This document shows, piece by piece, positions 11,561 to 34,300 of a stretch of DNA of 63,202 bases. This stretch comes from Folioceros fuciformis (lineage: Eukaryota). A model generated the notes under the pieces. That model was given only the letters and a program-made list of their open reading frames with translations, made no database searches and was not told the origin of the DNA. Made by a program: the position numbers and the translations under genes. The stretch spans positions 1 to 63,202 of the forward strand of contig JBNGIO010006432.1 in assembly GCA_049999805.1 (NCBI GenBank), in the 5' to 3' direction. Within the stretch, counting starts at the first letter, position 1. Each line of letters starts with the position of its first letter.

Positions 11561-12289
11561 CACAGCTGATGCACTGCAGCCTGTGCTGAAGCAAGGTCAA
11601 GGTTAACACTGGGGTCTAACAAATAAATAATTGCCTCATAATACTTCTTTTCTCATTTAATCATTCTTTGAAATATATGCTGTGAGTAGATCACACAGCA
11701 GAAGCCTATCTCTTGGGACACACTAGAAAAGAATTAAGAACTAGAAAAGAATTAAGAAGTTTAGAGATATTGATACCGAAGACGGGAAATGAGTGTTTGA
11801 AAAGGGGCATTTTTCAAATAAATGTCTTTGAGCCTGGAACCGAAGTGAAAAACAGTTGCACACAAGAATCCAAATTTTTAAGAAAAATGATTTTTATTTT
11901 TTTACTTTTTCTTAGAAAAATATGAATTCTTACTCTTGCACTCAAAAATATGTCATATAACTTCAATTGTGTATTATACTTTATATTAAAAAGTTAAGAA
12001 TGTTAATATAATTTATAAATCAAATCACATAAATTTTTATTTTTCAGTATGAAAGTAGAAAATAACTTTCAATGAGATTCAAAAGAGAAGTAGCTAGACA
12101 TAAAAAGACTCTCTTACTCTATAGATGTACATTAAGACTACAAGTTCAAGTATATGTGTCTACATCCAAATCTAAGCAATCCAAGTCATTCCGAGTTGCT
12201 CGAATGAGGCCTACAAATGAATCGTCAGAGAATGTGGAGGACTATGATAATGAGGAAGTTGAAGCAGACAACAACTTAACCATGGGAGA

Positions 12290-12900
12290 ACTGGTGGGAG
12301 TCATATGGAGAAAGTATCCATGGATTCAATACAATGTTGAGACTAAGATAGTTTCATGTAAAATTCATAGGCAATATGGGAAGAAAAGTTAGCAACAACT
12401 AGTGCAATGGCACAGCAAACATCAAGTCCAATTCTATCAACAAACATGCTTTCCATGCAATTCAATGAAACTCAACTAGAGCCCGAGATCATGATAGTCC
12501 AAGATTTACGGAAGTGGTGAAGAATGCAGTGGGGTGTAGATATGATGGTCTAATTTATATGTTTTAAAAGGCATATGACCATGGCATAGTAGGAATAATG
12601 TATCTTTCATGCAATTTCATAATACAATTAATCTACAAGGTTAGAAAATATCTCGTCATGATACCATGATGACAAAGCTTGTGCTAAGATGGTAACATGC
12701 ATGACCTTTGATAAAGCTTGTGCTAAGATGGTCACATATATGGCCTCTGATAAAGCTTGTGCTGAGATGGTAACATATACATGGCCTCTAACATACGTTA
12801 AGATTTAACAATGTCGGATAACCTTGAATCCTATATTTGGTTTGATGATAAATGAATCCATGAAATCTTTGGTCTTCATGTTTATGAATAGTTTTTTTTT
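12290..12900 (+). mobile_element. Degenerate hAT-like (ZNF862-type) transposase relic
   Basis: WRKYPWIQYN...IVSCKIH zinc-finger-like start, HDDKACAKMV (in a ~39-bp triplication at 12668-12790) and FGLMINES, resembling the first catalytic xDESTD motif. Confidence 0.5.
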
Positions 12901-14182
12901 GGGGGTTTTTTAGAAAGAAAAAGATCTCCTTTTTTTAATGTAAAATGGCTTTAGGCCTGCAAGTTTAGACTGAAAGGGTCTGTCTATTTGACACTTTACT
13001 GAAGTAAAAATTATCTTGAGGAATAAAAAAGAAGAAGTAAAAGTTGGCTGTAAGACTCTATGTAAAACTTATTTGCTGAGGTATGCTCTATGTCCGAACT
13101 CCACGTCCTAAGCCTCGGCCTTGTAGCCGCACCAATAAGAGTGGAGTGCTAGGCTGGCCTCTTGGTTGTGGAGACGACTACGTCGTGGAGAGGACCAGGT
13201 CAAGGCTGAGGCTAAGGTCTATCGAATAAATAATTGGTTTATAATATTTTTTTTTCTTATTTAACCATTCCTTTAAACATATGCCTTGGGCAGATCACAC
13301 AACAGGAACATATCTCTGGGGATGCGCTAGAAAAATTTAATAAGTTTATTATGCCAAAGACTGTAAATGAGTCTTTGAGTGTACATGGAGGTAACCTGCA
13401 AGGTGTATTTATTGATTTCAAACCCACGAGGGGGGTACCTATTGATTTCAAACCCAAGAAGCTAGAAGCAGCTGAACTGACAGAGAACACTGACACACAC
13501 ATCCACTGACACACACATCCACATCCACTGACACACACATCCAGACATTATCATATACAATACATTAATTTGAAACCCTCAGTCTGACATATAATAAATA
13601 ATAGTCATATCATATATTATTAATTTAAAACAAGCAATCTGACATAGAATATTTAACCTTCATCGTGACATAGTACATGATTACTACTTGTATATTTCTG
13701 TACATGATTACTACTTGTATGTTTCTGATCACTACTTCTCGCCTCGCCTGTGGCGAATGCTCAATTGTGAAGTTATGATACCCAACCATACCAATACCAA
13801 ACCATACCAAACCAAACTATACTGTAACATGCCCTTGCTCTACATTGAGCTTGTTCAGTTTATAGGAGGAGTTGGTTTCAAGAATATATATATTTCATAT
13901 TTACTATTTAATTGCCTTGTAAGTAGGTAGTAGTTAACCCGGCCTTCATCTTTAGTTCCTTCGATAGGAGATCCCAAAACAAAGTATTTAGATGTTCCCA
14001 CCGAGAAAAACATCTGCCGACAAAGGAAAACTCAAGTCCTGTAAGGGTCAAATCGGTGACCAGAGTTAGACGAATTCCTCAACCCCCGAATTTCTAGTGA
14101 GTTGGAAACGTTGATTTGCCAGCATTGAGGGACAAGTCTATATAGCATCACCTCTGGTCCGATCCCTCTTCGGGTGCTGGTG

Positions 14183-16993: not shown

Positions 16994-18439
16994 GGATCGG
17001 CACAGCACAACGTACGTTCAGCAGAGGGCCTGCCACAGCCAAATAGGTGCTCAGACATCAGGCGAGCTAGCGGCTTCAACAAAAGCTGTTCCCCGCAGTC
17101 GCCTCTCGCCTGGACAGGTTTTCTGGTAGAACAGAAACACGGATTCCAGGCTTGACAAGCATGAAACTCTCATGACAAACGTTTGCAGAGGCGAGGCAAA
17201 ATTTGTCCTCCTACGTTCAAAGTCCAGGCTGTAAAACGATGGGGGTGCGGCCTATCCACGTCACGGCTCACACCACGGCCTTTCCGCAGCCAAGGAAACA
17301 GGAAGTAACCGGCGGCAGCACGCTAGCTATACTGTCACGATGGCTGACATTAGTTAAAGCAGGTGCGGTTCAGACTCTGTCAACGCATGCAAATCTCTGA
17401 GCAACTAGGAGCAGCATTATCGATGCAAGCACGCCCCTTCAGACCACCAAAAGCCTCACCTCCATGTCCACGCTAGCAACAGTTTGGAACCACGGCCTGT
17501 AACCTCGTTCTCCAGCCGGAGAACTGAGGAACAGATCTGGAAAAACTCCTGCACGATCGCTTCCACTGGGACAAGGACTTGGTTATGATCAACACAAAGG
17601 CACTCGGCAGTGCCTTTGACGAACTTGGACACCTATATCGACCGGAAAGAGAGGCTTGACGCAGTAGGAGGCGGTGGTACGCTCCTCGCACACACCCGCG
17701 GGCGGCTGTCGTCAAGGAGACGGAGCGCCGAAACACGTCTCCTGATTCACGACCGTGAGTGACAGACTCATTCGGAAGACAGGCCTTTCACAGCCGCTCC
17801 CGAGCAGTTGCTGAGCATCGCAGACGCGACTACGGCCACAACAAGTTGGGCTGATCGGCGACAGCGTCTGTGGAAAAGGGAGCGATCCCGCGAAGGCAGC
17901 GGGAGCAGCACCTGGAACTCTTAATTGCCGTCAGAAGCCAAAGACTCCAAATATCTGGTTTCAGCGGTATAGGTGTTAGTTTCGCCCGGCTACATAGGCC
18001 ATGGCATGAAAGGTTGTACAAGCACACGTGCCTGCCATCCAGTTTATCTTTTGTGCATATTCACACATGTACATATTTCACGACGCTCACTGGTTGCTCC
18101 CTTTTGGCACCCTTTTTGTGACGTGTTGGAACAAGAACGACAAGAAAATGTTGAGCTCCATATGCTTCCGACATTGAGTATTGAATTCTAAACTATGGGA
18201 AAGAGATTGAAGTATCGTGTTCTGCCCAAGTATCAAGGGGAGCGTCAACAAGGCCAGAAGTACCCACCACCATTACCCCCTAAGAAACCTTGGAGAGAAA
18301 GAGACCTTGAGAGAGGACCAAAAACACATTGGAAAAGGCCTCCCATTCTTGAAGAGGCTCCCCGAGAAACCATCGTACATCCCAAGTTTGAATCTCCTTT
18401 GCCACCCCCCTTACAAGTTCCTCCCAGACGCAAAAGTCT

Positions 18440-19200
18440 TGTCAGAACAAACAACACCTGGTGCAAGACTTTGGATCACGAGTGTGCCTCGAAATGTGAT
18501 TCAGGATTTCATCCTCAAACATGTTGTGGTGGAACCAACACATTATACAAGATCTTCAAAGCCGGACAAAGTTTTGTGGGGGTGAGATTCTCCATCCCCT
18601 TCTACCTCTACAAAATTCTAAGACATGCAGTACCAATATCAACCTATGAATGTCTTCACAGATAGCACATCCTCAAATACTATCCGGGTACAAGTCTCCT
18701 AATGCTTATGGATTCAGGCCACCATTTCAATCTGAAACGTAAGTTTCCATACAAACCAAACTCCTTGCTTTCCAAATCATGAAACAACCTCACATCTTCA
18801 AGCCTTAATCAATCATCGGAGACAACAGGACCAACTCCTATTTTCAAAACCAAGTTCGAAAGATAGGACAAAATGCCACAGTGTATGATAAGAAATTGGT
18901 GCCTTATTACCCAAATGCAGCTCGAAACAGGGCTTCCTTCACTCTCCAATCTTTCGTAGGAGCTCGTGCTTTCGATCGACGAAATGCTAGCTATTTGAAG
19001 TGAGCATTCCCATCTTGTAGCAAGCTTCAAGATTTTGTATCTCGAGAACCTTTGGTATGACAAAACTTCGAATACAAATTCCTATCTTGGGTTGCTCTTT
19101 TTCAACAGACTTGTGAGTGGAAACCCAAGACACATGCGAACACCTAAGACCATGAATCAAACATTCATGAAATTCGAAAAGGATCCTCCTGGCATGTCTA
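18440..19200 (+). mobile_element. Highly eroded Gypsy integrase relic
   Basis: CDSGFHPQTCCGGTNTLYKIFKAG resembles the integrase zinc region (HxGxCGGH...KILRAG); further weak motifs downstream. Confidence 0.3.
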
Positions 19201-20369
19201 ACCAAGGCATATTTTCAGGTACTATAGCAACATTTTAAATTATCATCAAAATTCATCACAAGAAATAACAAATGCTCCTTTTGTATTCCTTTTGCAGACC
19301 GAGCAAAGAGGATTCATAAGAAGATCTTCAAAGATTAGCACTACAGAGGTATGCAAGAACAACACCCATGAAACCTACAATTAAGAAGAGTAATCTCCTT
19401 TCCTCCTCCTTCTTCTTCTTCATCATCATCTTCTTCTTCTTTGTGTTAAACCAATGAGGAAGATCTTGCTTTAGGTTACAACCAAACAATTAGTGCATTT
19501 GTTACTTTGCTTTTGGAAATTAAAAGGATAAGCCAACCCTATATAAGATGGTTTAGGAGGGAAGAGGAAGCAACAAACAAGTGTATGCATATCAACTAAG
19601 ATCTTCATGAATATGTTGCTAAAGAAGTGACTCTTATGTGGATCTATTTCACAATACAAAATAAGGCACACTTGATAAGTAATATTTTACATAGTTACAG
19701 TCTATGATTATGCAGAAATGCGACCACTTATCTCTATTTGTGTGCTAAATGAGTGCACTAATAAAGGATGTGCAAATTTTCTACTATTTCACATATGATG
19801 TTACAGATTATTGTAAAATGTGCAATATATTTCTACTTCTATGCTTATTTTTATTTTTCTGTTTTATATAGAAATAAAATGAAAGAAGTATAATATCTTT
19901 ATTAATTGATTATTTAATTCAAAGATGATTTAATGATTTTAATATGCACGTCATTTATCTCTCTAAAGTNNNNNNNNNNNNNNNNNNNNNNNNNNNNNNN
20001 NNNNNNNNNNNNNNNNNNNNNNNNNNNNNNNNNNNNNNNNNNNNNNNNNNNNNNNNNNNNNNNNNNNNNTCTCTAAAGTACCTGGTTTTTTTTCTCTATC
20101 TTTTTCATACATTTTTTTTGGATAATAAAAAATTTATTATTATAGAAGATGTAAAAACATATTTATTCTAATTTAAAAGGAAGAACCTTTAAGAGAACAC
20201 TTAAACAACCATAGTCCAATTACAGACCTCTACTTAAGTAGAGGAACACTTGCAACGAAAAAGCACCTTTCTCTACTTCCCTACTTCCCTACTTCGACAA
20301 CAAAGGACTCCAAGAATGTGGTAATCCTTGATGTCATCACAAGAGCAAAGAGAGTGCAGTTGTTTAAGA

Positions 20370-23011: not shown

Positions 23012-26007
23012 TTAACAGGGTGGCAAGGTGACATATTGACATAGAAAGAGGTCTGACAGAGACTTGCCATGCCTGTCCAGCCGACGTGAACAAGTGACCC
23101 CACCGTCGAGCACGCCCGTCAGAACAACATTCAAGGCACAAACTCCCCCGACCTGGTAGATCTTTATCTGCAGATGGCTGTCTTCCGTTGGTTGCCTTTT
23201 GGCCCACAACCATGTGGCACGTGGGTCAGGATTTGGTGGAGTGACCTCACCTTTTTCGCTTTCCAGGAGAGGTTCTGCTACCTGCTTCACCCACTGGGTG
23301 GTTATGACCTTCCTCAGTCTCGGAAGATCCGTTGGACAATGTGGGATCAGACTGACGTTTAGTTGGTTCCCCTTATCCCCTGTTCTGCTGTGTGCAACTT
23401 CATATAAAGGGATGCTGACGCCTCCGGGAGCAGGTTGACAAACAGGAGCACGCACACATGCTACGATTGCCGGTTCAGATTTCGGAATGCTAGTGCTGTT
23501 GCCTTGGTTGTACTGCTGCTCATTTGTTTTACCACATCCGCTGGGCCTCATGCTGCTCCTCCATGTTACCTTTTCTCGTGGCACCTGCAACATCCGGTTA
23601 GTGGGGACAGCTCACGGTACAACTAGGTTGGTTGTGTGCAGACATCAGGTTTTTCTGAGCAACACAGCTCGTACCAGGACCTTGGTCAATAGAACTTGAT
23701 CCTTGTATCCAGTACTGCAGAGATCCGAGGGGGCTGTGAGCTTCTTGACATCCATTTCATTGACAGAAACGTACACAATGCTTCTACAACAGATACTTGA
23801 GACCATTTGGATTTCATTGTAAGAATACCTGATGCCTCCCCCTCCGGCTGGACCATTGGTGTACAATGCCTCAAATTCTTCTGTGAACAATAGCGCATGA
23901 GCTCGTGACTGGAAGAGCCCATCCATACGCAGCCTAACTTCGGTAGCCAGCCCACCCATACGCTCACTACCCCTTAATCCGGCCTGAACTCTTGGCCACA
24001 CTCTCAAGCTGTCTACTCCGATCATATATGACAGAACATGCTTAGTGCTTCCAGGAACAGCTTCTTCCATCCATGCCCGCACCTATTTTCGCATAGTGAA
24101 AATGAGAAACGACGACCCTTCAATTTCAATACAACCGGTCGATTCTTGGATATAGCTAACCTTTGTCCTCACCAGATGATCTCCAGCAGCAGCTCTGTCT
24201 TCACAGTACGGGCCTCCGTATGATATCTCTCCCCACCCTTTCACCCCGCAGTGCTGTAAGCCCAAAAAAGTCCAGCCAATCAGATTAACAGGTGGTGCTC
24301 ATGGATGAGTTAAATTGCTGCTGCACTACAGTGACATTGATCGGAAAGGTATCTGACCTCTGGTATGAGGCGGAGCAGTCTCTCCGGGCACAAAGGGAGA
24401 GACGGCCGAGCACCTTTAGCTAGCACCCTGTCCTTGCTCTGTGGTTCGAATGATACACTTGTGAAGTCAACCACCTGTCCAGCATAACATAATTTTCAGA
24501 TCAAACAACCCAGCACACAAGACGCAATATGTGCACACGAACTAGGGTACAACACTACGCTCTCACCACATCGGGTGTGACGTACGAAGCAGGATCTCCA
24601 ATCTCATACAGAAGTTGCTGTGCACATGTGGCGGCACTAAGTTCTCCACCACTGCCAGGAGCTTTGCATAAGACAGTTGTGCCATCCCAGCTGACCTCAG
24701 CATAGGGCAATGAGACGTCGAGTAACTGCTGTATTGGGAACTTCCTGTGCTGGTCAGCTGTCGAGCCATGTTATCAACCAATTACAAATGTAGTTTACAT
24801 GCTTACACTCAAGCTATTGTCTCACAAAGAACATCAATAACAGACGAACAAGAGTAAGGGGACACCAGGGTGCATGTAGTATCCTCCAGTCAGCTGGCAG
24901 CCACATTCAAGGAGATGTCCAGCCAGGGTTCCTTGAGCTAGTAGGTCGAATTGATCCCAATCCCAACCGAGCTCATATACCTGGACGCCCAGGACAGACT
25001 ATTGAGGAATGTGTATGTCATAGCCCTACACCCTTCCCATGAGAGTTAGGGGGCAACTGTCGAGAAAAGTCCAGAGACAACTGCTTATTGCAGAGGAGTT
25101 TGATCCATCTTACCATGGGTGCTAAAAATAAAGCGGCATCAGCCGTCCGAGATGTAAGTATTACATTAGGATTTCCAGACTCCAAAGCATGAACAATGGG
25201 AGCTGCACCAAGGTACGTGCTGGAACCCTGCAAACCCTATCACCCTCATTCAACTTGCTCACCCAAACATCCAACACAAAAAATCATAACTTAGTGAGCT
25301 TAGAATTGCTCACCACAAGACTATTACTGTTTTGTTCTTCAAACACCACAGCAACATTCACTTGCAAATTCAACTCACTTGCTGTCTTCAGGACTTGACT
25401 CTGAGCTCCAAGCGGATCAGCTACAACGAAAAGAGATATCCATCAGCTGAAAGAGGCTTCAGAGCGTCTACAGCATTCCATTAACGCCAGGACTTACTTG
25501 CACCCATGTTGGTGACAATGCATACTGCCTGGTTCACTGCAACAGGCAGAAGTACCTCCATCCATGAAGCAACTGCATACAGAGAAAAATGGGTCAACAT
25601 TGCAGGTTATGACTTCACCACAGGGCACAACATAAATGGAAGACAACGTAAATTTTTGGCCGGAAGAGCTAATACTTCGAGGATCATAACCCAGGCCCCC
25701 ATCGGCCATTGCATCGAACCGGTTTGCAAGAGTCCGCTCAGCCAGACACTCGAGCACGAGGTAATGCAAGTTTGGGACTTGGGTCAGCAGCTTCAATGCA
25801 GCAGCAATCCTGTCTCCAGCGAAACCAGCTCCACATCCAACGCTAACTGTGTGCTTGCGTCGGATAGGATTTGGCCTCTGGAAAGATACAACACCGTGAA
25901 CGGCTGTGTGGAGGCACTCTTAATACTATTCAGCATGTGAATTGCCCCCTTCTTACCGATTTCACCACACAGTCGCTTGCAGACCCCACATCCCTGGAGT
26001 CAGCCAT
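23012..26007 (-). CDS. Acyclic terpene utilisation AtuA / DUF1446 family protein, multi-exon
   Basis: VGCGAGFAGDR...YLVLECLAERTL, YLGAAPIV...RTADAALFLAPM, GEISYGGP, LYTNGPAGGGG, AHSRTGDKGN, RRLDRHGKSLSD. Confidence 0.92.
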
Positions 26008-26369
26008 CGCGGAAGCCCACTCTGGTACCCGCTATAGTAACGTCAAAGGCTGAAGAAGAGGAGAATTTCCGAAAGTTCTGTCACCGGAGCTATGACCCTT
26101 CCGTAGCCACGATGAATGACTGAAATGCTGAGGCAGGAGCAGAAGTTTACGACCGTTAGAAAAATCAAAGAGCCATTGCGCTGGAAACTTTAGTCGTCGA
26201 ATAGCTTGAGAAAGCTGCGGAAGAACAGGAGAGCTGGACCTCCGGATTCACACATGACGCACAACGTCCAAAGCATGCTGGCCGCTGTGAGCTTTTTGTC
26301 ATCAATTTCTTTTCCAAAAGAACCAAAAACAACAATTAAAAAAAGGACTTTGGTTGTCTTTTAACCTGA

Positions 26370-27040
26370 TATCCCCGTCTCCAGCTGACCCATGTGGATC
26401 CAAGGCCTTATTCAGATCCTTGCGTTAGCCATGGCTCGAGAATTTGTGACTAGAAAAGACTATCCGCCGTACGCAACCCATAACTCATGATTGAAATAGC
26501 CCACCCGTGGGCGGCCTGCTTTTCGAAACCAGTCCAGTTGTTCGTTCAGTGCCCTTTGATCCGGCCTGAATGCTTGGTCACGATCCCAGGCTATCTTACT
26601 TCAATGACAGGTGACAGGCTACCAGCAACAACCTCCTCCATCCATGCCCCACCTACTTCTGCATAGTGATGAGACATCTATCTTCATCTGTTCTACAGTA
26701 CTCTGGCATTTGGTTCTTGCGCATATTTAACCTATCACCTCACGAGCTTGTCTACAGAAGCTGCTCCTCTTTTTACAACATGGACCGCCATGGGGTATGT
26801 CTTCCGGACCTTCACACCTCAATGCTATTAGCCCAGAAGCCCAGCCAATCAGATATTCAGGCGGTGGTCAATAACAAGTTACATAATTTGCTGCATTAGG
26901 GAGACATTGGGTGTGTCGTGTACATGCTCATCACCAGTGTAATGTCTCAAAGAAAGGCAGTAATAGATGTACACAAGTAAGGGGACAACAGGGTGCGTGT
27001 TGTATCCTCCGGTAAGGGGCAGCTACATTCAAGAGCGATA
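26370..27040 (-). pseudogene. Degenerate partial duplicate of the AtuA-like gene
   Basis: Colinear similarity to ~23840-24915, e.g. AGTAAGGGGACAACAGGGTGCGTG vs AGTAAGGGGACACCAGGGTGCATG; TCCATCCATGCCC and ATCCGGCCTGAA are shared. Confidence 0.75.
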
Positions 27041-27202
27041 TTCACCGGCGTGAATATCATACTTTCATAATGGCCAGTCTAGCGGATTGAAATCTGAGAG
27101 AGGCAAGGAGACGAAGTTTAGAATAAATCTGATAGCACTTTGATCATCGAATTTCTACTGGGGACGGATGGAGCAACAGCTTAGGGATCACGATGAAAGA
27201 TA

Positions 27203-30200
27203 ATGTTTTGCCAGCAGCTTGGCTTGTCCTGGAATGATCATGGCAGAGATTTTCCCGGCAACCCCTCCGCAGGAACCAAGGGTCGTAAATGGCAGATGCA
27301 AACTACCGCCGCGACAAGTCTTGTTCAGCACCAAGTCCTTCACTATCAATCTCTTAAGACGGCATCCAGCTGTGGGCAGGAGATTGGCGTGGTGCAAAAG
27401 AGGTGCGCTTCTACGAAGGAAATTGCTATGTGGGCAGTGGAGTTATTTTGAATCCTATCTGAATTTGACAGAGTAGCGACTGCTAGTGTTGTGAACCTGC
27501 CACGTTCAATGCAGTGCAGGAGGGTGAGAAAGAAGCTGACCAGCGAAAACTTTATGTCCAACATGATCTACTCGGTCGAAGAAGATCTGAAAAGAAGGTA
27601 CTCCTACTTGTTTAACCCCTACATCAGCGCTAGCTCCAGCTCGGTTGGTCGGTGTCCGCAAAAAGTACCAGTGGATCTCATGGATATTTTCGCGCTTGAG
27701 AAGGTGGGGGAATTAGAAGAATGTGATCTCTTTGACCGCCAGCTATTGGAGACATTCCCAAAGAAAGAGCTGCAAGGGAAGGTTGTGATGGTCCGTTGTG
27801 ATCTCAATGTGGTCTTCAAAGATAGTAAAATTGTTGATGAAAACTTGCGGCTCATGGTACCCACAATTACCTATTTGGCTGAGGTTGGTTCAAAGGTGGT
27901 CCTTGTGAGTCATTGGACTGTATCAAAGGAAAACAGACAGACCTCATCAATTGCAGGTGTGGTGCATTATGCTTTGCTGTGTACACATCGTGGAGCCTCT
28001 TTCCGATTAACCTTGTCACTCACCTATTAGGATGTCTTACTCATGCAGATGCCTTATGTCGTCTTATGAACCGAAGAATTCTATGGACAACCCATGCTGT
28101 TGGGGAAGAGGCAGAGGAGAAGATTCGCAATTTGGATAATGGGGACGTGCTGTTGCTTGGAAATATGAAGCAGTACAAAGCCGAGGATGCCAATGATGCA
28201 GCCTTCTCCAGGGCTTTGACAGCCAAAGTGGACCACCTTGTCAATGATGCTTTCTGTGTGTCTCATAGAGTGCTTGCATCTACAGTGGGAGCAGCTTCTT
28301 TTACATGTGCCAGACTTGCAGGTCTACAGCTTGCGAAGGAGCTTTTCTTTTCACAGAATATTCTTCAGAGTCGCATACACCCGTTTGTAGCAATTGCATG
28401 TCCTTTTCCTTCCAAACTGATAAATATTTGCTTCGCACAAGTGCTATCTTTGCTCGAGCATCACATTCAGGGGGCTGGCTGCTACCTACATGCGGTATAG
28501 TTACTTGCTTTCAGATCAGGTATGGTGACCTCAAGGTGAGCTCTTTACTTTGCAGATTGGAGGGGGGAAGCTGTCAGATAAAGTGGATGCTCTTCATCAA
28601 CTGCTCTCTCGGTGCGACAAAATCTTTGTCACTGGAGCCATGGTGTTTCCCCTGCTTGAAGCAGCTGGTCTGCCAGTGCCTGCATCTTGTACAGAGCGAC
28701 ACATGTTATCAGAAGCTTTAGAGCTTCTCCTTTCAGCTCGTGAAAACCAGGTTGAGCTTGTTCTCCCTAAGGATTTGATGCTTGCCAAGGACAATGCATC
28801 ACATCTCACCACCAACATTACAATATCTCAGCCAGTCCCACATGGTGCGTTCATATTTGCTGCTTCGTGTCTTTGGGAGATCAGTTGGTAACAAATACCA
28901 TGATCCTGTGTTCTGCTTTACCGCCTCACATTTCTAGCGGTATGTGCAGGGTGGCAGCCTGTAGATCTTGGACCAGAAAGCTTGGACGACATAGCTCACT
29001 CCGTTAGGCAGAGCAAGGTATGCTTCGGCTGTTTTCTGTCTCTGACAAAGTATAGGACAACAGCTTCACACACACTCACAAAGTCTTACCTACACATATG
29101 CCCATCGCTGCAGATGGTTCTCTGGTTTGGTCCCTGTGGAATGGGCCATGCCGCAGGTTCTACCACAGGACTGCTCTCACTTGCAAGGGTTATATCAAAG
29201 CAAAGTGCACAAGGATGTATCACAGTTGCCGGAGGAAAAGACGTCGTCAAGGGACTACGAGAAGCAGGCGTGATCAGCATGATCAGCCACGTATCCGTAT
29301 GTGGAGCAGCATTTTGGCAGCTGCTGAAGGGACGTACACTTCCAGGAGTTGCTTCTCTCGACCCAGTTAAGACCTACTTCTGGCTCGTGGAATGTGCTCT
29401 GTGTTGGAATGGACGCTTGTCCCGCATCTTCTGCTGGTGTGGATGGGGAAAGACCGTACTTTGTTTCACCCCCTGCTGATGAGTCTGTCCTTACCCCCAA
29501 CATTCAGGTGGCACCCACGCCTCCAGACTGGGAAAGAGTCTACAAGGATCCCTTCCTCCCCCTTACTGTGGATATTGGATGTGGTGAGAACTGTGCCTTC
29601 AAGTCTGGTTTCTTTCTTGGCAATTCCGGAAGTGCGTCTTTTGGAAGTGAAAACAGCTGTCGTCATCTCTGGCAGGGAACGGGCTATTCATTCTGAAGAT
29701 GGCAGGCAGCTTCAGTTCGAGAAATTTTCTTGGGTTTGAAGTTTTTCCGAAGGTGTGAGTCTCACCACGTAATTCAACACGTTTACCAATCCTGCCCAGG
29801 CAACAGACCAGCGTCCAGCCAGCTGATAGTTGCTTGTTACTGCAGTTAGTTGCACGATGCGCTGATTCTGCTAAAGCCAACGGACTTCTTAACGCGTGAG
29901 TAACCATCGAATAAGGCCTTCCTTTGAGTCCCACGGTATTCTGCGGTGGATTCCTCTCATTCCGAGTGTGTCTTGCGGTACAGGCATTTCATTGCTGCAA
30001 ATGCCACCTCGTCCTACAGCAGAATAATCGCGTCCTATCCTGGAGATGTCTCTCTCGTCACCATACAGGTAACGCAGACAGCGGAGCTGTGTACACCAGA
30101 CCGCTCCGCCCCGTGTACAGGCCCTTGTCTCACACACTCCATGCATGCAGTGTCCGGACCCTAACTTCAGCAAACCAGATAGCCGGTGGAGGATGGTGCA

Positions 30201-30553
30201 GAGACAGCTTGTGGAAGCCATCACAACAAGTCTGAGTCCCGGAGGGAAGGTACCGTGCTTCGCTAGGCAACGTACGTGAACGAACCCTGGCCAGACAACA
30301 CGCCCTGACAGCCCCTTCCCACGTGCAGGTGTTCCTCCAATCCGACGTGAAATGCGTGCTGGAAGCCTTGATGCAGGAGTTCAGGCTCCACGGGGGAGGA
30401 ATATTCGCACTCAGCTCCGAACACCTCACGCCAAACGCCTGCGACGAGAACGGATGGTTGAACTTCAACCCCCTGGAAGCATCTACAGACTGGGAGGATC
30501 ATGCCCTGCAGCGCGGCGATCGAATGTTCCGAGTGCTCCTCGCCAAACTTTAG
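27203..30553 (+). CDS. Phosphoglycerate-kinase-like domain fused to a tRNA (guanine-N7)-methyltransferase (TrmB-type) domain, multi-exon
   Basis: PGK-like: GKVVMVRCDLNV, VNDAFCVSHR, IGGGKLSDK, VDLGP, LLKGRTLPGVASLD. TrmB-like: LTVDIGCG/NG, NFLGFEV, IQ/CPDPNF, VFLQSDV, NPLEASTDWEDH. No stop between the domains after splicing; start exon inferred. Confidence 0.85.
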
Positions 30554-31079
30554 CGTCATTCAAACTTCACCGTGAAGGCATTTTTCTACACGGGACTCGG
30601 TACTCGGTACTTCACTTCACACTTCCACCATGGAGTTTTTGAGGCGCTAGTACCAAGGGCATCACTCCCTCTGAGGAACCCCATCGATCGAAGCTCAAGA
30701 TCTTTGATAACCACGTCCTCTTAATGCGCTGATGTAAACCCTAAACCATAATCCCAACATTGCGTTCGTTACGGACAAGGACACCGGTTATGGTAAATTG
30801 TTTGCGAACCCATACTGTTTGACCTAGAAATGACAGATAATGAAAACAAATTGATATGTTTATTAAACGTTTGGGGATGAAGTACACTATGACGCATGGG
30901 TCATCCGCCCACGTTAAGTAACAAAGGAAGCTAGTTTTTTGTAAGCCATGGAGGCCTAGGGTGAAGCTAGGCTGCAATGAGGGATCCGTTGCAGTATTTT
31001 GGCCCACTATATTACGACTGCAAACTTCGCCCTTTCTGACCTTCGGGCTGTTGGACCTTCAACCCCGGGATATTGAATC

Positions 31080-31285
31080 ACACTTTCCGATCAGTTGGCC
31101 GTTGGGCCTGGACATGCCGGGATCTTAAATCTGCGGCCACTTTCCGCTCTGTGGGCTGTTGGGCCTGGACATCTCGGAATCTGGAATCACCGGCCACTTT
31201 CCGCTCTGTGGGCTGTTGGGCCTGGACATCCCGGAATCTGGAATCACCGGCCACTTTCCGATCAGTTGGGTTGATGGGCCTGGAC
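31080..31285. repeat. 57-bp tandem repeat, about 3.5 copies, between convergent genes
   Basis: CCACTTTCCGCTCTGTGGGCTGTTGGGCCTGGACATCTCGGAATCTGGAATCACCGG. Confidence 0.92.
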
Positions 31286-31381
31286 TGCCCGGCTACCAAC
31301 ACAGTGGCACCTGGCAGGTTTCCCCGGGGACAGCTGCGCCTTGTCCACATGCTATATTATGCTCTCCTTCACCTACGGGAT

Positions 31382-34300
31382 CTAGTTCCCGATCGCCTCG
31401 CCTGGCCACTTTGGATATACTCGCTTGTACAAGGCCAGGCATGCAGAATCCCGTTGCTGAATCACTCCGTCAAATGTGCATTTCATCGCCCCTACAACCA
31501 AAGCACGAGTCAGCTTGGAGTGAAGAGTAAGCAGGTACTATCCCAATCAAACTTTGGAGCCAATCAGGAAAGTGTGTCCAACCATGTGTTCCAACAGGTT
31601 CGATTATCCGCCCACGCCTTCCATACTTTGTCCATAGTTCCACTGGCTGCAAGATAAGGAAGCACACAGGTTTGAGTCACACAACAGCCCATTCGATGCG
31701 TCACGCTCTCAGTTAGACGAATACAAGTTCCAGTTACCTTGAACCACCGGACATCCTCAGGGTTATGAAACATAAACCGTATCACGGCTCTCCGCTTCTG
31801 CACCCGTTGTGGGTACCTGCCATAAACGTGTGTCAGCATCACTTGCTCCATCCCAACATGGGCATGAGCCACATGCAACTTCAAGCGGTCCACAATGGCG
31901 AGTTACGAAAACTGTACCCTGAAAGTACAATCTTCTTTAGGATGATCCGGTCAGGATCCACATTCTTCAACAGTCCAGAAGCCACCATCTCTTTCACTCC
32001 CTGCTCGTCATCTTTCAGCAATATCACAGGGGCAGGAGGGAAAGTAATTGGAGCATAAGCACTAGCCACTAGGAACTGTCCTGCACTCAAGAACCTTTCG
32101 AACTTATGTTTATTGGTATTAAGATTGTCGGCAGAAAAAATGGGCCTGCATCCAGTACGTATATTAATACACACGCGAGACAGATCCCCTTGAAAACAAA
32201 GAACAAGCTGGGAGAGACAAACCTGGTGGTAAACTGCCGGAAACCCACATGAAAGGTTAGCTCATCCTTGGACCTGATCTTGCTTCGACACATGTCTGTC
32301 ATCTTGATGCTATGCACACACAAGCTACAATCAGAAACGACCACACGAGCACAAATCACTAGACAGGAGTTCTTTAGTAGAGCTCAGTTGCTTAGGACAC
32401 TTTTTTTGTTGAAAATAATAGCTCATACTCATGCCCCACTCAGAATTCTGAGTCTACAGGAGGAAGAAATCTAACCTGAAGTGGACGACAGACAGCTTGG
32501 CTTCATGCTTCAACAACCCACAGGCAACGATAAATTTCGTGTCTTTAGATGCCAACAGGTTTCGGGCTGGACCAGAGGGCACACCACACAGGTGTACCCG
32601 CACGAAAGTGCCAGCAGTCACACAGCCCAGTCCGGGACCCTCTACAACCTCCTCAGCCAGTCTCAAAACCAGCTTTCGAGTCCTCTGAAAGTTTTGAAAT
32701 GAAAAAATTCTTGCATACTCTGGAGGCAGTGACTCCTGTGCAACAAAAGAACTGGTGTAAAGTTGCCCATGCATAACAAGGAAACAAAGCCCAAAACAAA
32801 TTTTTCCATCTCCACTTCTGTTTCAGAATCTGAAAAAATAGAACAAACCTTTGGATCCCAGGACGACGATCGAAACGATGACATGGCCCTGTACCTGGCA
32901 AAACGCTGTTTTGCAGGAACATCAGTTGGAGTGTCGACATCATCTGGAAATTCTGCAAGGCACATTCACAGAAGACATTTAGCACCAAATTCTCACCCAC
33001 AAATAGGTCACACGCTGCACCCTCTGCACACGATTTTTGTCACATCCAATCCAAATGCAACTTGTCTGATTTACCTTCATCCGTCTTTCGGGCAGCTTTC
33101 AGTCGGCGCAATTCTGCATCCCGTTGAGCTGTAGTTTGCTCATCCTCCTCCTCCTGAAAGACGGGAAAATGTATCCTCAGCACAAGCCAGTATACGTCAT
33201 CAGGCGAGCTGCAAAAATTATACTCGCCATCGTCTCACTCCGCCCATCTTCATCGTCCCAAACAGAGGATGGAGGTCCTCTAATGTCACCAGAACACTCG
33301 TCTGAAACGTGACCATCCTCATCTTCCCCCATTTCCATTTCCACTGCTTCAGCCATGTCTTCATCACCATCACCAGTATCATCTTCAGCTTCAGAGTCAG
33401 AGGCCTCATCCAAAAACCAGGATGCCTAAAAAACAGAGCGTAAGTCAACCCCAAAATTGAATATTTGCATAGCAGGTGCTTCGAAGAAAGAACTCCACAA
33501 ATAGTGTTCAAGGCAGAGATAAAGCAGTGCACATTCACCTGGTACTTGGACGTCCCCACAGGTAACTTTTTCTGTGCTCTCCGAGAAGCAGCATTCTTCG
33601 CTTCAGCCAGCTCCATCTCAGTTGGCCATGTCTGCAACCAGTCATATCTCGTTACAGGGGCCAGACCCTTCACATCCCCGACTGCCATAATCACTCCCAA
33701 CTCACGCATTTACCTGCTCACCGGCGAGGGGGTCTGGGACATTTGTGATGATGAGGGGTTCTTGTAGCTCAGGGTTGGGGGTGAGAGAAGACAATGTCTG
33801 CAGACAGTGGCAAGGATCACCAGCACATTAAACAAAGGCGGAGAAAGAAAGAACCACGGGGAACGGTAACGGGTTGAGCAGTAACGCAACCTCAAGGACC
33901 AGCTCATCGACGAGCATGGCATCGTCTGTCGCTTTGGATTTTCTCCGCCTTGCAGATAAGGGGAAGGGATCATCCATGACATCTATTTTCGCTATTTGAA
34001 AGTCACCAATTGCAGGAACATGGACCTGTTTCGAGAAGTCATGAGGAAAACCAAAGAAAAATCTACCAATGACCATGCAAGCTATCACAAGGGAGAGTAC
34101 ATGCAAAAGATATGAATGTGGCTACCAGTTGATTCACAGAAAGCGCTCGCCCTCGCACATATCCAGAGAGGAAAAGCATCCCTTTCTCTGGTTCTACAGG
34201 ATCTTCAATATAGTCTACCTGCACCCAGACAGAACGACCTGAGTCTAGGACTTATGCAGCGGTGATGACAATAAAAAGCAGGCATAAGTGAAAAAAAGGA

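Follow-up and report, generated by a model that had tools for sequence, protein, structure and literature searches.

A degenerate phosphoglycerate kinase joined to a divergent TrmB-family methyltransferase domain in Folioceros fuciformis, a further member of a land-plant fusion family

A gene of Folioceros fuciformis encodes a degenerate phosphoglycerate kinase (PGK) fused to a TrmB-like methyltransferase domain, and it is an orthologue of the PGK-methyltransferase family of land plants. It lies on the forward strand of a 63,202-nucleotide stretch of DNA (contig JBNGIO010006432.1 of assembly GCA_049999805.1, positions 1 to 63,202; hereafter the window), where a scripted spliced model joins 13 coding exons between positions 27234 and 30553 to yield a protein of 691 amino acids. 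This protein consists of a basic N-terminal extension of about 97 residues (pI 9.9, net charge +8), a full-length PGK fold of about 390 residues and a TrmB-family class I SAM methyltransferase domain of 204 residues, which is joined directly to the C-terminal helix of the PGK fold. In its sequence, the protein has lost PGK ligand residues and has retained SAM-binding and core TrmB residues. The explanation that we favour, to which we give about an even chance of being correct, is that it represents an RNA methyltransferase rebuilt around a dead PGK module.

The existence of such a fusion is not new in itself, and the gene described here is a further member of the family. The maize protein ZmPGK5, published in 2020, is a PGK that lacks catalytic motifs and carries an added methyltransferase domain (PMC7761438; here and below, statements from the literature refer to the available parts of the papers cited). 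A sequence-only reading of the window had also anticipated similar fusions among uncharacterized plant gene models, and these are indeed plentiful. The domains PF00162 and PF02390 occur together in at least 56 proteins among 120 matches listed, including those of Diphasiastrum, Ginkgo, Cryptomeria and many angiosperms, and three Streptophyta protein clusters (64, 101 and 117 members) carry the fusion. With the addition of open reading frames (ORFs) from de novo fern transcripts that contain both domains (Pteridium P0321, 687 aa; Psilotum P0320, 696 aa), the architecture survey proposed in that reading finds the combination to be common to a lycophyte, two ferns, gymnosperms and many angiosperms. 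Proteins of about 795 residues labelled PF06962 were also considered as PGK-methylase fusions and were rejected, as they are tandem PGK-PGK proteins.

Fusion proteins are monophyletic in a tree of the TrmB domain (14 rows, support 100/100) and in a tree of the PGK domain (11 rows, SH-aLRT 100, in a set assembled without ordinary plant PGKs). Both trees, together with the open spliced frame, place the window protein within the ZmPGK5-type family, and sorghum and other grass members share its clade in each. The two domain trees are congruent, and the branching order of the fusions agrees with the phylogeny of plants, indicating a single ancient fusion that has been inherited vertically. Its conservation reaches back to the common ancestor of vascular plants or earlier. 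Like the window protein, members of the ZmPGK5 group have an N-terminal PGK without catalytic motifs followed by a C-terminal IPR003358/PF02390 domain (PMC7761438). The window protein differs in that it comes from a lineage outside seed plants and shows the same level of identity (42-46%) to members from ferns, lycophytes and gymnosperms. The maize study gives a 509-aa model for ZmPGK5, predicts a nuclear location and proposes horizontal transfer from bacteria (PMC7761438). Among the papers that we found, the architecture is described only there, as far as the available text goes, and our literature search found no paper that assigns a function to the PGK-TrmB fusion.

The sequence-only reading regarded the locus as a single gene, which is borne out by a spliced frame that is free of internal stop codons and ends at a TAG codon (30551-30553). 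Eleven introns of the model have GT-AG borders and one has GC-AG borders. The model aligns end to end with the Pteridium fusion protein (46% identity over 597 residues, E 4e-180) and with full-length fusion proteins of other plants, and a tblastn search with a lycophyte fusion protein gives colinear matches from 27740 to 30550. All splice evidence comes from contigs of run X2 of a relative, which is presumed to be RNA; a further run, X1, which contains 0.59 of the sampled words, yielded no contig on the window. Seven of the 12 introns agree with these contigs exactly at the cut given below, four agree within 1-3 bases or with intervening letters, and intron 7 alone is left unbridged. An Rfam search of positions 25000-33000 produced no match.

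Translation is predicted to start at the ATG at 27234, which is the first in-frame ATG past a stop codon at 27201-27203 located immediately ahead of it. A spliced X2 contig begins at 27137, such that the 5' untranslated part of exon 1 extends at minimum over 27137-27233. An alternative ATG at 27203 was rejected as the start; its frame cannot enter exon 2, and it is not retained in the close relative. The earlier proposal of a full-length PGK-like chain therefore stands, whereas one continuous chain from 27203 does not, since three exons precede the PGK core. Coding exon 1 (27234-27402; X2 joint 27400/27513, cut +2, GT..AG) carries the start codon and the basic, poorly conserved N-terminal extension, and 12 of its 14 listed differences from X2 alter the encoded residue. 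Exon 2 (27515-27597) rests on the model; here X2 skips 27550-27699 and has 39 other letters, with the same frame kept as judged by eye.

The PGK-like domain begins in exon 3 (27701-27956; motifs RCDLNV and SHWTVS; PF00162 profile 5-73, E 4.7e-11; X2 joint 27951/28044, cut +5), and the remainder of its N lobe is encoded by exon 4 (28049-28395; LLGNMKQY and DAFCVSHR; profile 70-187, E 1.6e-25). The intron that follows is the GC-AG intron, and its joint (28395/28556) is seen in X2. Exon 5 (28556-28844; profile 185-277, E 7e-17; X2 joint 28843/28949, cut +1) encodes C-lobe sequence that includes IGGGKLSDK. It is followed by exon 6 (28950-29017; model, with X2 joint 29015/29112, cut +2) and by exon 7 (29114-29365; model; profile 298-379, E 3.1e-12), in which the domain ends with GGKD, SVCGAA and LPGVASLDP. 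When ten ORF pieces were searched against Pfam, all four located between 27452 and 29479 matched PF00162 (42.7, 90.3, 61.9 and 46.6 bits; cut-off 27), jointly covering profile positions 5-379 of 379, and five of the ten pieces had no match of any kind. The gene product thus belongs to the PGK fold family with its whole two-lobe domain above the gathering score. Substitutions relative to X2 in exons 3 and 4 comprise 10 synonymous and 9 non-synonymous changes, numbers that are few for a selection test and that come from the 40 of 85 differences listed.

Intron 7 (29366-29507, 142 nt, GT..AG, phase 0) separates the PGK-like and TrmB-like parts, and its retention would stop the frame after 41 codons. 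We consider it very improbable that a decaying PGK and a neighbouring TrmB gene have been read mistakenly as one, or that the PGK half is an active kinase. In the relative, the PGK part and the TrmB part do reside on separate contigs (depths 15.6 and 71.2), and the junction is crossed by 17 letters only: the first contig runs to 29366 and then has 17 letters, of which 15 match the start of exon 8, where our threshold for a bridge was 31. Short TrmB-only ORFs are also present in transcriptomes. However, these ORFs begin inside the PGK C-terminal helix, the junction in the window is in phase 0 with no stop and no need for a start codon, both domains are covered by single ORFs in fern transcripts and by many RefSeq models, and the two domain trees agree. 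Activity of the PGK half is opposed by the loss of its kinase ligand residues.

The motifs quoted in the sequence-only reading (SHWTVS, LLGNMKQY, DAFCVSHR, GGKD, SVCGAA, DIGCGNG and CPDP) are all present in the spliced model, and 38 ordinary PGKs show no variation at the canonical counterparts of the altered PGK motifs. Conservation among these 38 proteins reaches at least 95% in 95 columns, of which the window protein keeps 61, more than any other sampled fusion member (43-58 in 30 others), whereas every canonical PGK keeps at least 87. The description of the PGK part as a pseudo-enzyme is supported by these counts, and the protein would be expected to have no kinase activity.

The individual ligand sites lead in the same direction. 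The 3-phosphoglycerate (3-PGA) ligands (D23, N25, R38, H62, R65, R122 and R170 in human numbering) occupy columns that are all invariant in the 38 canonical PGKs. The window protein has D, N, H and R at D23, N25, H62 and R170, and Asn, Val and Lys at R38, R65 and R122, and so departs from the set expected of an active PGK (EC 2.7.2.3). The nucleotide/Mg site, formed by K215, K219, N336, E343 and the GGGD and STGGGA loops, is likewise incomplete. K215, K219 and D374 are kept, but N336 is replaced by Phe, E343 by His and G373 by Lys, and T393, G394 and G396 of the STGGGA loop are replaced by Val, Cys and Ala. The altered invariant columns correspond to human R38, R65, R122, N336, E343, G373 and T393-G396. 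In the rest of the fusion family N25, H62, K215 and D374 have been lost as well. Equivalent 3-PGA-binding residues are listed for ZmPGK1 in the maize study (PMC7761438).

These patterns bear on the suggestion that 3-PGA, ATP or another phospho-metabolite still binds to the dead PGK domain, which would adjust the methyltransferase allosterically and link carbon status to tRNA methylation. Such an arrangement seems improbable to us. Parts of the 3-PGA pocket (the Arg-x-Asp of the first strand, His169, Arg/Lys170 and Lys219, in human numbering) are invariant in the window protein and 30 other fusions, both lobes of the fold are complete (Pfam profile 5-379), and the window copy adds N25, H62, K215 and D374. 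However, these last four residues are gone across the family, and the window protein itself is without R38, R65, N336, E343 and both glycine loops. With most canonical 3-PGA and ATP/Mg ligands gone, the metabolite or nucleotide sensing proposed in the sequence-only reading is not supported, and no evidence of any kind ties the gene to carbon metabolism.

The TrmB-like domain is distributed over six exons. The first, exon 8 (29508-29583; model), aligns with fusion and stand-alone TrmB proteins and encodes the first part of SAM motif I (DIGCG). The motif is split by an intron (29584-29675) and is completed (NG) in exon 9 (29676-29752; model, conserved columns, X2 joints within 2 bases), which also supplies the motif II Glu (LGFEV). 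Exon 10 (29846-29895; model; X2 joint 29750/29844, cut +2) and exon 11 (29984-30068; AANATS; model; X2 joints 29895/29985 and 30065/30148) lead to exon 12 (30151-30249), where the motif IV loop QCPDPNF..RWRM is recognized by alignments, by a residue table and by a Methyltransf_4 (PF02390) match. Exon 13 (30329-30553; model; tblastn to P0002, E 4e-19) encodes FLQSD and STDWE and ends with the stop codon; X2 coverage extends to 30570. The Methyltransf_4 match, obtained in one downstream ORF piece, scores just 19 bits (cut-off 24) because the domain is split over these exons.

Membership of the PF02390 family is evident from the spliced model, which matches stand-alone PF02390 proteins over about 200 residues (E 1e-41 to 1e-51), and TrmB is the only methyltransferase family to give good matches. 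When profiles were scored on orthologues, full fusion proteins reached 85-87 bits for PF02390, and four of them reached 36.9-82.4 bits for the NCBIfam equivalog model TIGR00091, below its cut-off of 112.65 bits. The domain shares its class I SAM methyltransferase fold family with bacterial TrmB (B. subtilis 2FCA/7NYB, E. coli 3DXX, S. pneumoniae 1YZH) and aligns with the B. subtilis protein along residues 27-208 of 213 (E 1e-11). Motif I (D-x-G-x-G-x-G), the acidic residue of motif II and the D-P of motif IV are shared with these enzymes, as are D180, T217 and E220 (E. coli numbering), which are D, T and E in the window.

Across the 87 fusion-clade rows of the residue table, which were not de-duplicated, the D, G, G and G of motif I are kept in 85, 85, 82 and 85 rows, the motif II Glu in 85, D180 in 85, T217 (as S or T) in 87, E220 in 87 and R155 (as R or K) in 75. 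In the de-duplicated set (n=53), the picture at the active-site loop is different. The catalytic Asp (E. coli D144, A. aeolicus D133, within a D-P-W/H motif) is present in the window as QCPDPNF, but this position is Asn in 43 of 53 sequences, including Ginkgo, and Val in Pteridium; an acidic residue at position 144 or 146 occurs in 51 of the 53, the exceptions being Ginkgo and Pteridium. The basic loop (R150, H151, R154 and R155 in E. coli) is replaced in the window by Pro, Asp, Trp and Arg, such that R155 is its sole surviving residue. Trp occupies the R154 column in 49 of the 53 fusion-clade sequences, and the H151 column is acidic or Gln. Among the 53 rows outside the 87 in which the R154 column has Trp, Arg is found at R154 in 51 and His at H151 in 45. 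The fusion clade therefore carries a P-(D/E)-x-R-W-R loop in place of the canonical basic loop. The sequence-only reading had called the TrmB part intact-looking. Its DIGCGNG and CPDP motifs are present, but the domain belongs to a fusion-specific clade whose basic loop has been replaced and in which most members have Asn at the catalytic Asp.

The closest non-fused relatives are plant stand-alone proteins of the TRM8b type (Arabidopsis At5g17660, rice LOC_Os01g35170; PMC5740945, PMC2956550), which are 40-44% identical to the window domain over about 200 residues. Proteins of about 300 residues were assigned to the At5g17660 type because they agree with it in length (312 aa) and in where the domain lies (PF02390 starting near residue 115). 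Like the window protein, they come from streptophytes and have an N-terminal extension of about 100 residues. However, they lack a PGK domain and form a separate clade with the canonical CPDPHFKKRHHKRR loop and a TERE motif, and the window protein, placed in the other clade and without a KKRHHKRR loop, is not one of them. This stand-alone clade includes Gastrolobium, Aristolochia, Cocos, Flemingia and Drosera, and groups with Chara and Spirogloea.

It appears improbable, to much the same degree as metabolite sensing, that the protein is a TrmB orthologue doing the usual work of an organellar tRNA m7G46 methyltransferase, with the PGK part as a functionless passenger. The exclusive similarity to TrmB methyltransferases would fit, as would the catalytic Asp, R155, D180, T217 and E220 of the window copy and a basic N-terminal extension like those of organellar presequences. 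However, plants retain the stand-alone clade with its full canonical loop, and Aristolochia has both genes. Moreover, the PGK-like domain is full length with many invariant columns from ferns to angiosperms, whereas a passenger would decay. In addition, Arabidopsis chloroplast tRNAs carry m7G46 (10.1101/2024.06.14.598963), and Arabidopsis is reported, in the available text of PMC7761438, to be without the fusion. The Arabidopsis observations contradict the notion that the fusion is required for G46 methylation in plastids.

A more serious possibility, though still well short of probable, is that both halves are pseudo-enzymes, and that the TrmB-like domain has lost methyl transfer but keeps binding to SAM, or to RNA alone, with the protein acting as a non-catalytic regulator, chaperone or scaffold. 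The prevalence of Asn at the catalytic position is consistent with this, as is the complete absence of an acidic residue at 144/146 in Ginkgo and Pteridium. Mutants that match the R154, H151 and catalytic Asp changes are inactive or nearly so: R154A abolishes the activity of E. coli TrmB and H151A leaves less than 10% (PMC10130221), and the D133N exchange inactivates A. aeolicus TrmB (PMC6320965). The stem branch of the fusion clade in the TrmB-domain tree is long (0.86 changes per column), and the gene appears dispensable in Arabidopsis (PMC7761438). Opposing these points, the SAM motifs, D180, T217 and E220 are almost invariant, the acidic residue at 144 or 146 in nearly all sequences resembles selection for a working active-site loop, and the window copy has the canonical Asp.

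Our favoured explanation would assign separate roles to the two halves of the protein. The PGK fold would be complete but catalytically dead, and the methyltransferase domain would be the working part, still methylating RNA, most likely at guanine N7. Substrate recognition may have been rebuilt, since the clade-specific P-(D/E)-x-R-W-R loop stands in place of R150, H151 and R154, and the dead PGK domain probably provides positioning or recognition, by analogy with Trm82/WDR4 for Trm8/METTL1. In yeast Trm8-Trm82 and human METTL1-WDR4, the TrmB-family catalytic unit needs a large non-catalytic partner (PMC6320965); that partner is a separate WD40 protein, whereas here it would be a fused PGK fold. 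The motif IV stretch of the window resembles that of METTL1 (E 0.98, a weak match). A candidate target is G46 of organellar tRNAs, redundantly with stand-alone TRM8b, or another site.

Several observations sit uneasily with this explanation. Besides the Asn and Trp substitutions noted above, no new basic patch is evident on the PGK-like domain: fusion-specific conserved basic columns are absent there, except for one Glu-to-Lys change near the C-terminal helix, and the net charge of the domain rises modestly (-7 to +6 in fusions versus -20 to -1 in canonical PGKs). Also, the orthologues reach at most 82 bits against the TIGR00091 model, the gene is absent from Arabidopsis and ZmPgk5 is weakly expressed in maize according to the available text of PMC7761438, and there is hardly any expression of the long PGK genes of soybean (PMC13259330).

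A bolder version, which we regard as unlikely, is that the dead glycolytic fold has taken over substrate recognition for a methyltransferase of TrmB descent, which would have given up m7G46 formation in favour of an orphan site (e.g. the anticodon m7G of organellar tRNAs), or that the protein acts as a SAM-responsive regulator. The window copy, with its least-decayed PGK and canonical Asp, would then be closest to the ancestral state. The enzyme responsible for anticodon m7G in organellar tRNAs was listed as unidentified in the available text of a 2018 review (PMC6320965).

Fused PGK folds have precedents in the multidomain 'dead' PGK-like proteins of kinetoplastids and in the Thermotoga PGK-TIM protein, and the kinetoplastid proteins are also a precedent for PGK domains that lack substrate-binding residues (PMC7729029). 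Their partner domains are cyclic-nucleotide-binding, HTH, PAS or TIM domains, and the lineages are unrelated to the plant fusion (PMC7729029). The word 'methyltransferase' is absent from 300,000 of the 303,628 characters of that review.

The fusion has been retained from ferns and lycophytes to grasses, and therefore has some function, yet neither half resembles a standard enzyme. The database name 'phosphoglycerate kinase', and the counting of such genes as PGK isozymes in gene-family papers, are misleading when metabolism is annotated. The family would add to the incomplete list of plant RNA-modification enzymes if its methyltransferase half acts on a new RNA target, and it would then clearly illustrate the reuse of a dead metabolic enzyme as a built-in partner domain. 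As an early-diverging and less decayed member, the gene in the window is useful for comparative and biochemical work on this family.

Pfam scans of stop-to-stop open reading frames (ORFs) in the window, which is eukaryotic DNA with short introns, gave four separate PGK matches on the + strand between 27452 and 29479 (42.7-90.3 bits; cut-off 27 bits) that in combination span profile positions 5-379 of 379. A single ORF (30073-30279) matched Methyltransf_4 at 19 bits, below the cut-off of 24 bits, and the remaining five of the ten ORF pieces scanned with Pfam had no match. Two full-length homologues, retrieved using exon 4, were then aligned by tblastn to guide a gene model, and splice sites were enumerated by script. 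The resulting model (27234-30553, +) comprises 13 exons encoding 691 amino acids; of its 12 introns, 11 are GT-AG and one (28396-28555) is GC-AG. The last residues of the PGK-like part are in exon 7, which ends at 29365, and the methyltransferase domain begins with exon 8 at 29508 after a phase 0 intron of 142 nt, whose retention would introduce a stop after 41 codons. Family scans used single window exons and orthologues.

Every motif cited in the sequence-only reading is found in the spliced model, including DIGCGNG, which is split by intron 8 and joined on splicing. The start proposed there, 27203, must be moved, as this ATG is out of the model frame and is altered in a close relative; 27234 is the first in-frame ATG downstream of a stop. 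The non-model frame of exon 1 (27197-27451, +) that holds the 27203 ATG ends four codons past the exon 1-2 junction, and its third position takes 8 of the 14 listed differences from the relative. This frame may represent a short upstream ORF, or may be open by chance.

Splicing was evaluated using X2, a run from a related organism whose contigs are 90-99% alike to the window and whose RNA nature is putative (guessed by the tool). Joints in X2 match seven of the 12 model introns exactly at the stated cut, the GC-AG intron among them; for four more introns, the joints are off by 1-3 bases or have a few intervening letters. No X2 contig bridges intron 7, at the PGK/TrmB junction, at the tool's 31-letter criterion; one contig terminating at 29366 carries 17 extra letters, 15 of which are identical to the start of exon 8. 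A single mRNA is independently supported, because both domains are carried on one de novo transcript ORF in two ferns, Pteridium aquilinum (687 aa) and Psilotum nudum (686 and 696 aa). Many RefSeq models likewise span both domains. An additional X2 joint (28315 to 28550) deletes the end of exon 4, and an X2 piece (28366-28477) extends into intron 4, both of which we take to be minor isoforms or unspliced RNA. Three short fusion-clade ORFs retrieved from other plants appear to be TrmB-only: P0134 and P0135, which start within the C-terminal helix of the PGK-like domain, and P0319, a 310-aa Psilotum isoform from a cluster listing. These may be fragments, or short isoforms that lack most of the PGK part.

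The gene is flanked upstream, at a distance of about 1.2 kb, by a divergent AtuA-family gene (23012-25919, -; AtuA and AtuA ferredoxin-like domain matches) and downstream by a convergent, multi-exon Tsr1/BMS1-type ribosome-biogenesis gene (31564-34121, -; RIBIOP_C, the Tsr1/BMS1 C-terminal domain, and AARP2CN matches). The latter may explain the length (2576 nt) and higher depth of the X2 contig that carries the TrmB exons. Between the two convergent 3ʹ ends resides a tandem repeat (31081-31292; 57-bp unit, 3.7 copies, 87% matches) that translates as repeated peptide units in two + frames. Nothing points to a functional link between the fusion gene and either neighbour, and an Rfam scan of 25000-33000 gave no match. 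Elsewhere in the window, G+C content falls to 0.36 (12001-14000) and 0.375 (18001-20000) vs approximately 0.47-0.55 in the remainder.

The gene belongs to a known, uncharacterised PGK-methyltransferase family. Its architecture was published by Massange-Sanchez et al. in 2020 (PMC7761438), who describe maize ZmPGK5 as missing four of nine PGK motifs, carrying a C-terminal IPR003358 methyltransferase domain, being weakly and steadily expressed, and having an unclear role. They report counterparts in poplar, Ricinus, Vitis, Sorghum and rice, and none in Arabidopsis. A 2026 paper on the soybean PGK family reports long members (up to 674 aa) that are hardly expressed (PMC13259330), and its main text is silent on the extra domain. 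Our literature searches found no functional study of the fusion.

That similar fusions might exist among plant gene models was borne out. Of 8000 candidates scored with a Diphasiastrum protein as query, 519 matched (E up to 0.001), and PF00162 and PF02390 occur together in 56 of the 120 matches listed. These 56, annotated as ‘phosphoglycerate kinase’ or ‘uncharacterized protein’, represent a lycophyte, Ginkgo, Cryptomeria, magnoliids, monocots and eudicots. Three clusters of this architecture (64, 101 and 117 members) occur in the ESM Atlas, from Streptophyta wherever the source is known. No PGK match is present in the proteins of Chara braunii and Spirogloea muscicola that rank among the nearest TrmB relatives. 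The window protein shares 42.6-46.4% identity (about 600 residues) with members from ferns, gymnosperms and lycophytes, and is thus nearly equidistant from all three. In the trees of both domains it occupies an unresolved position at the base of the fusions; it therefore derives from a lineage outside seed plants. Three metagenomic proteins of about 795 aa (P0059, P0062 and P0063) were rejected as methylase fusions: each carries two complete tandem PGK domains, and its PF06962 ‘rRNA methylase’ label is a weak match inside a PGK domain.

To assess the PGK-like half, the window and 30 other fusions were compared with 38 ordinary bacterial and cyanobacterial PGKs over 95 columns, each at least 95% conserved among the latter. 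The window retains 61 of these columns and the other fusions 43-58 (median 47), whereas each ordinary PGK retains at least 87, in agreement with the earlier proposal of a pseudo-enzyme. In what we take to be human PGK1 numbering, the window lacks R38, R65, R122 (Lys instead), N336, E343, G373 and T393/G394/G396, and retains D23, N25, H62, H169, R170, K215, K219 and D374; most seed-plant fusions additionally lack N25, H62, K215 and D374. The domain is full length, many invariant columns are common to the fusion family, and PGK-like domains of fusions are monophyletic on a long stem. By these alignments, it is a conserved pseudo-enzyme and not a remnant in decay; of the copies sampled, that of the window is the least decayed. 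The partly retained 3-PGA pocket is the one point in favour of a metabolite sensor, as the sequence-only reading had suggested, and we regard this role as improbable.

The methyltransferase domain of an orthologue aligns with Bacillus subtilis TrmB (residues 27-208 of 213, E 1e-11) and more weakly with Escherichia coli TrmB, Streptococcus pneumoniae TrmB and human METTL1. Orthologues score 85-87 bits in Pfam, above the cut-off, but at most 82.4 bits against the NCBIfam TrmB equivalog, below its cut-off of 112.65. A whole-library search with a TrmB-only fragment recovered 1814 relatives (E up to 0.001), including stand-alone streptophyte proteins of about 300 aa whose length and domain position agree with those reported for Arabidopsis At5g17660 (AtTRM8b, predicted to be chloroplastic) and its rice counterpart OsTRM8b (PMC5740945, PMC2956550). 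A stand-alone protein coexists with a fusion in Aristolochia californica. On a tree of 42 rows, the fusion domains group as a single clade (14 rows, support 100/100, stem 0.86), and stand-alone angiosperm proteins cluster apart from them with Chara and Spirogloea (92/87). Because the two clades are separate, the fused domain is, on this tree, an old paralogue rather than the ordinary enzyme carrying an added part.

About 97 aa long, the N-terminal extension is basic (pI 9.9, net +8) and, by comparison with X2, fast-evolving, as are organellar presequences; maize ZmPGK5 was predicted to be nuclear from a 509-aa model (PMC7761438). A plain organellar m7G46 enzyme carrying a passenger domain has little probability, given the separate stand-alone clade and the long retention of the PGK fold. 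Moreover, m7G46 is reported on chloroplast tRNAs of Arabidopsis (preprint 10.1101/2024.06.14.598963), the very plant from which the fusion is reported missing (PMC7761438).

TrmB residues were numbered as in E. coli, following PMC10130221 and the above alignment of the orthologue domain with bacterial TrmB. In the stand-alone clade, CPDPHFKKRHHKRR and TERE are retained; the counterparts in the fusion clade are QCP(N/D)P(D/N)F..P(E/D)xRWRM and (S/T)DWE. The corresponding window residues are Asp (D144), Pro (R150), Asp (H151), Trp (R154), Arg (R155), Ser-Asp (T179-D180), Thr (T217) and Glu (E220). The domain, first described as intact-looking, does keep DIGCGNG and the catalytic-position Asp, but its basic loop is replaced and its clade lies apart from stand-alone TrmB. 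Among 53 fusion-clade sequences de-duplicated at 90%, Trp occupies R154 in 49, and the 144/146 pair is N/D in 43, D/N in four, D/D in three, D/S in one, V/N in Pteridium and N/N in Ginkgo, such that 51 carry an acidic residue at one position or the other. Motif I, the motif II Glu, D180, T217 and E220 are near-invariant in the clade (rows not de-duplicated). In E. coli TrmB, D144A, R154A and R155A abolish multiple-turnover activity and H151A leaves <10% (PMC10130221); the Aquifex aeolicus enzyme is inactivated by both D133A and D133N (PMC6320965). The main alternative is that in most species the fused methyltransferase domain, too, has lost catalysis and that the protein is a regulator or scaffold, which we consider unlikely, although less so than either the sensor or the plain m7G46 enzyme.

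The locus is thus one gene encoding a conserved fusion of a dead kinase fold with a constrained but rewired TrmB-type domain. The reading we favour, with about even confidence, is that the protein would not be a kinase and that the methyltransferase domain would be its working part, with altered substrate recognition. Methyl transfer to RNA is probably retained, as selection maintains both the SAM site and an acidic residue in the active site. The PGK fold would probably serve as a fixed non-catalytic partner, by analogy with Trm82/WDR4, the partner that Trm8/METTL1 requires (PMC6320965). To the published family, this work adds a member from a non-seed plant with its exon structure, a family-wide tally of lost PGK residues, and a fused TrmB domain that forms its own clade, in which the basic loop is replaced and the acidic residue is movable.
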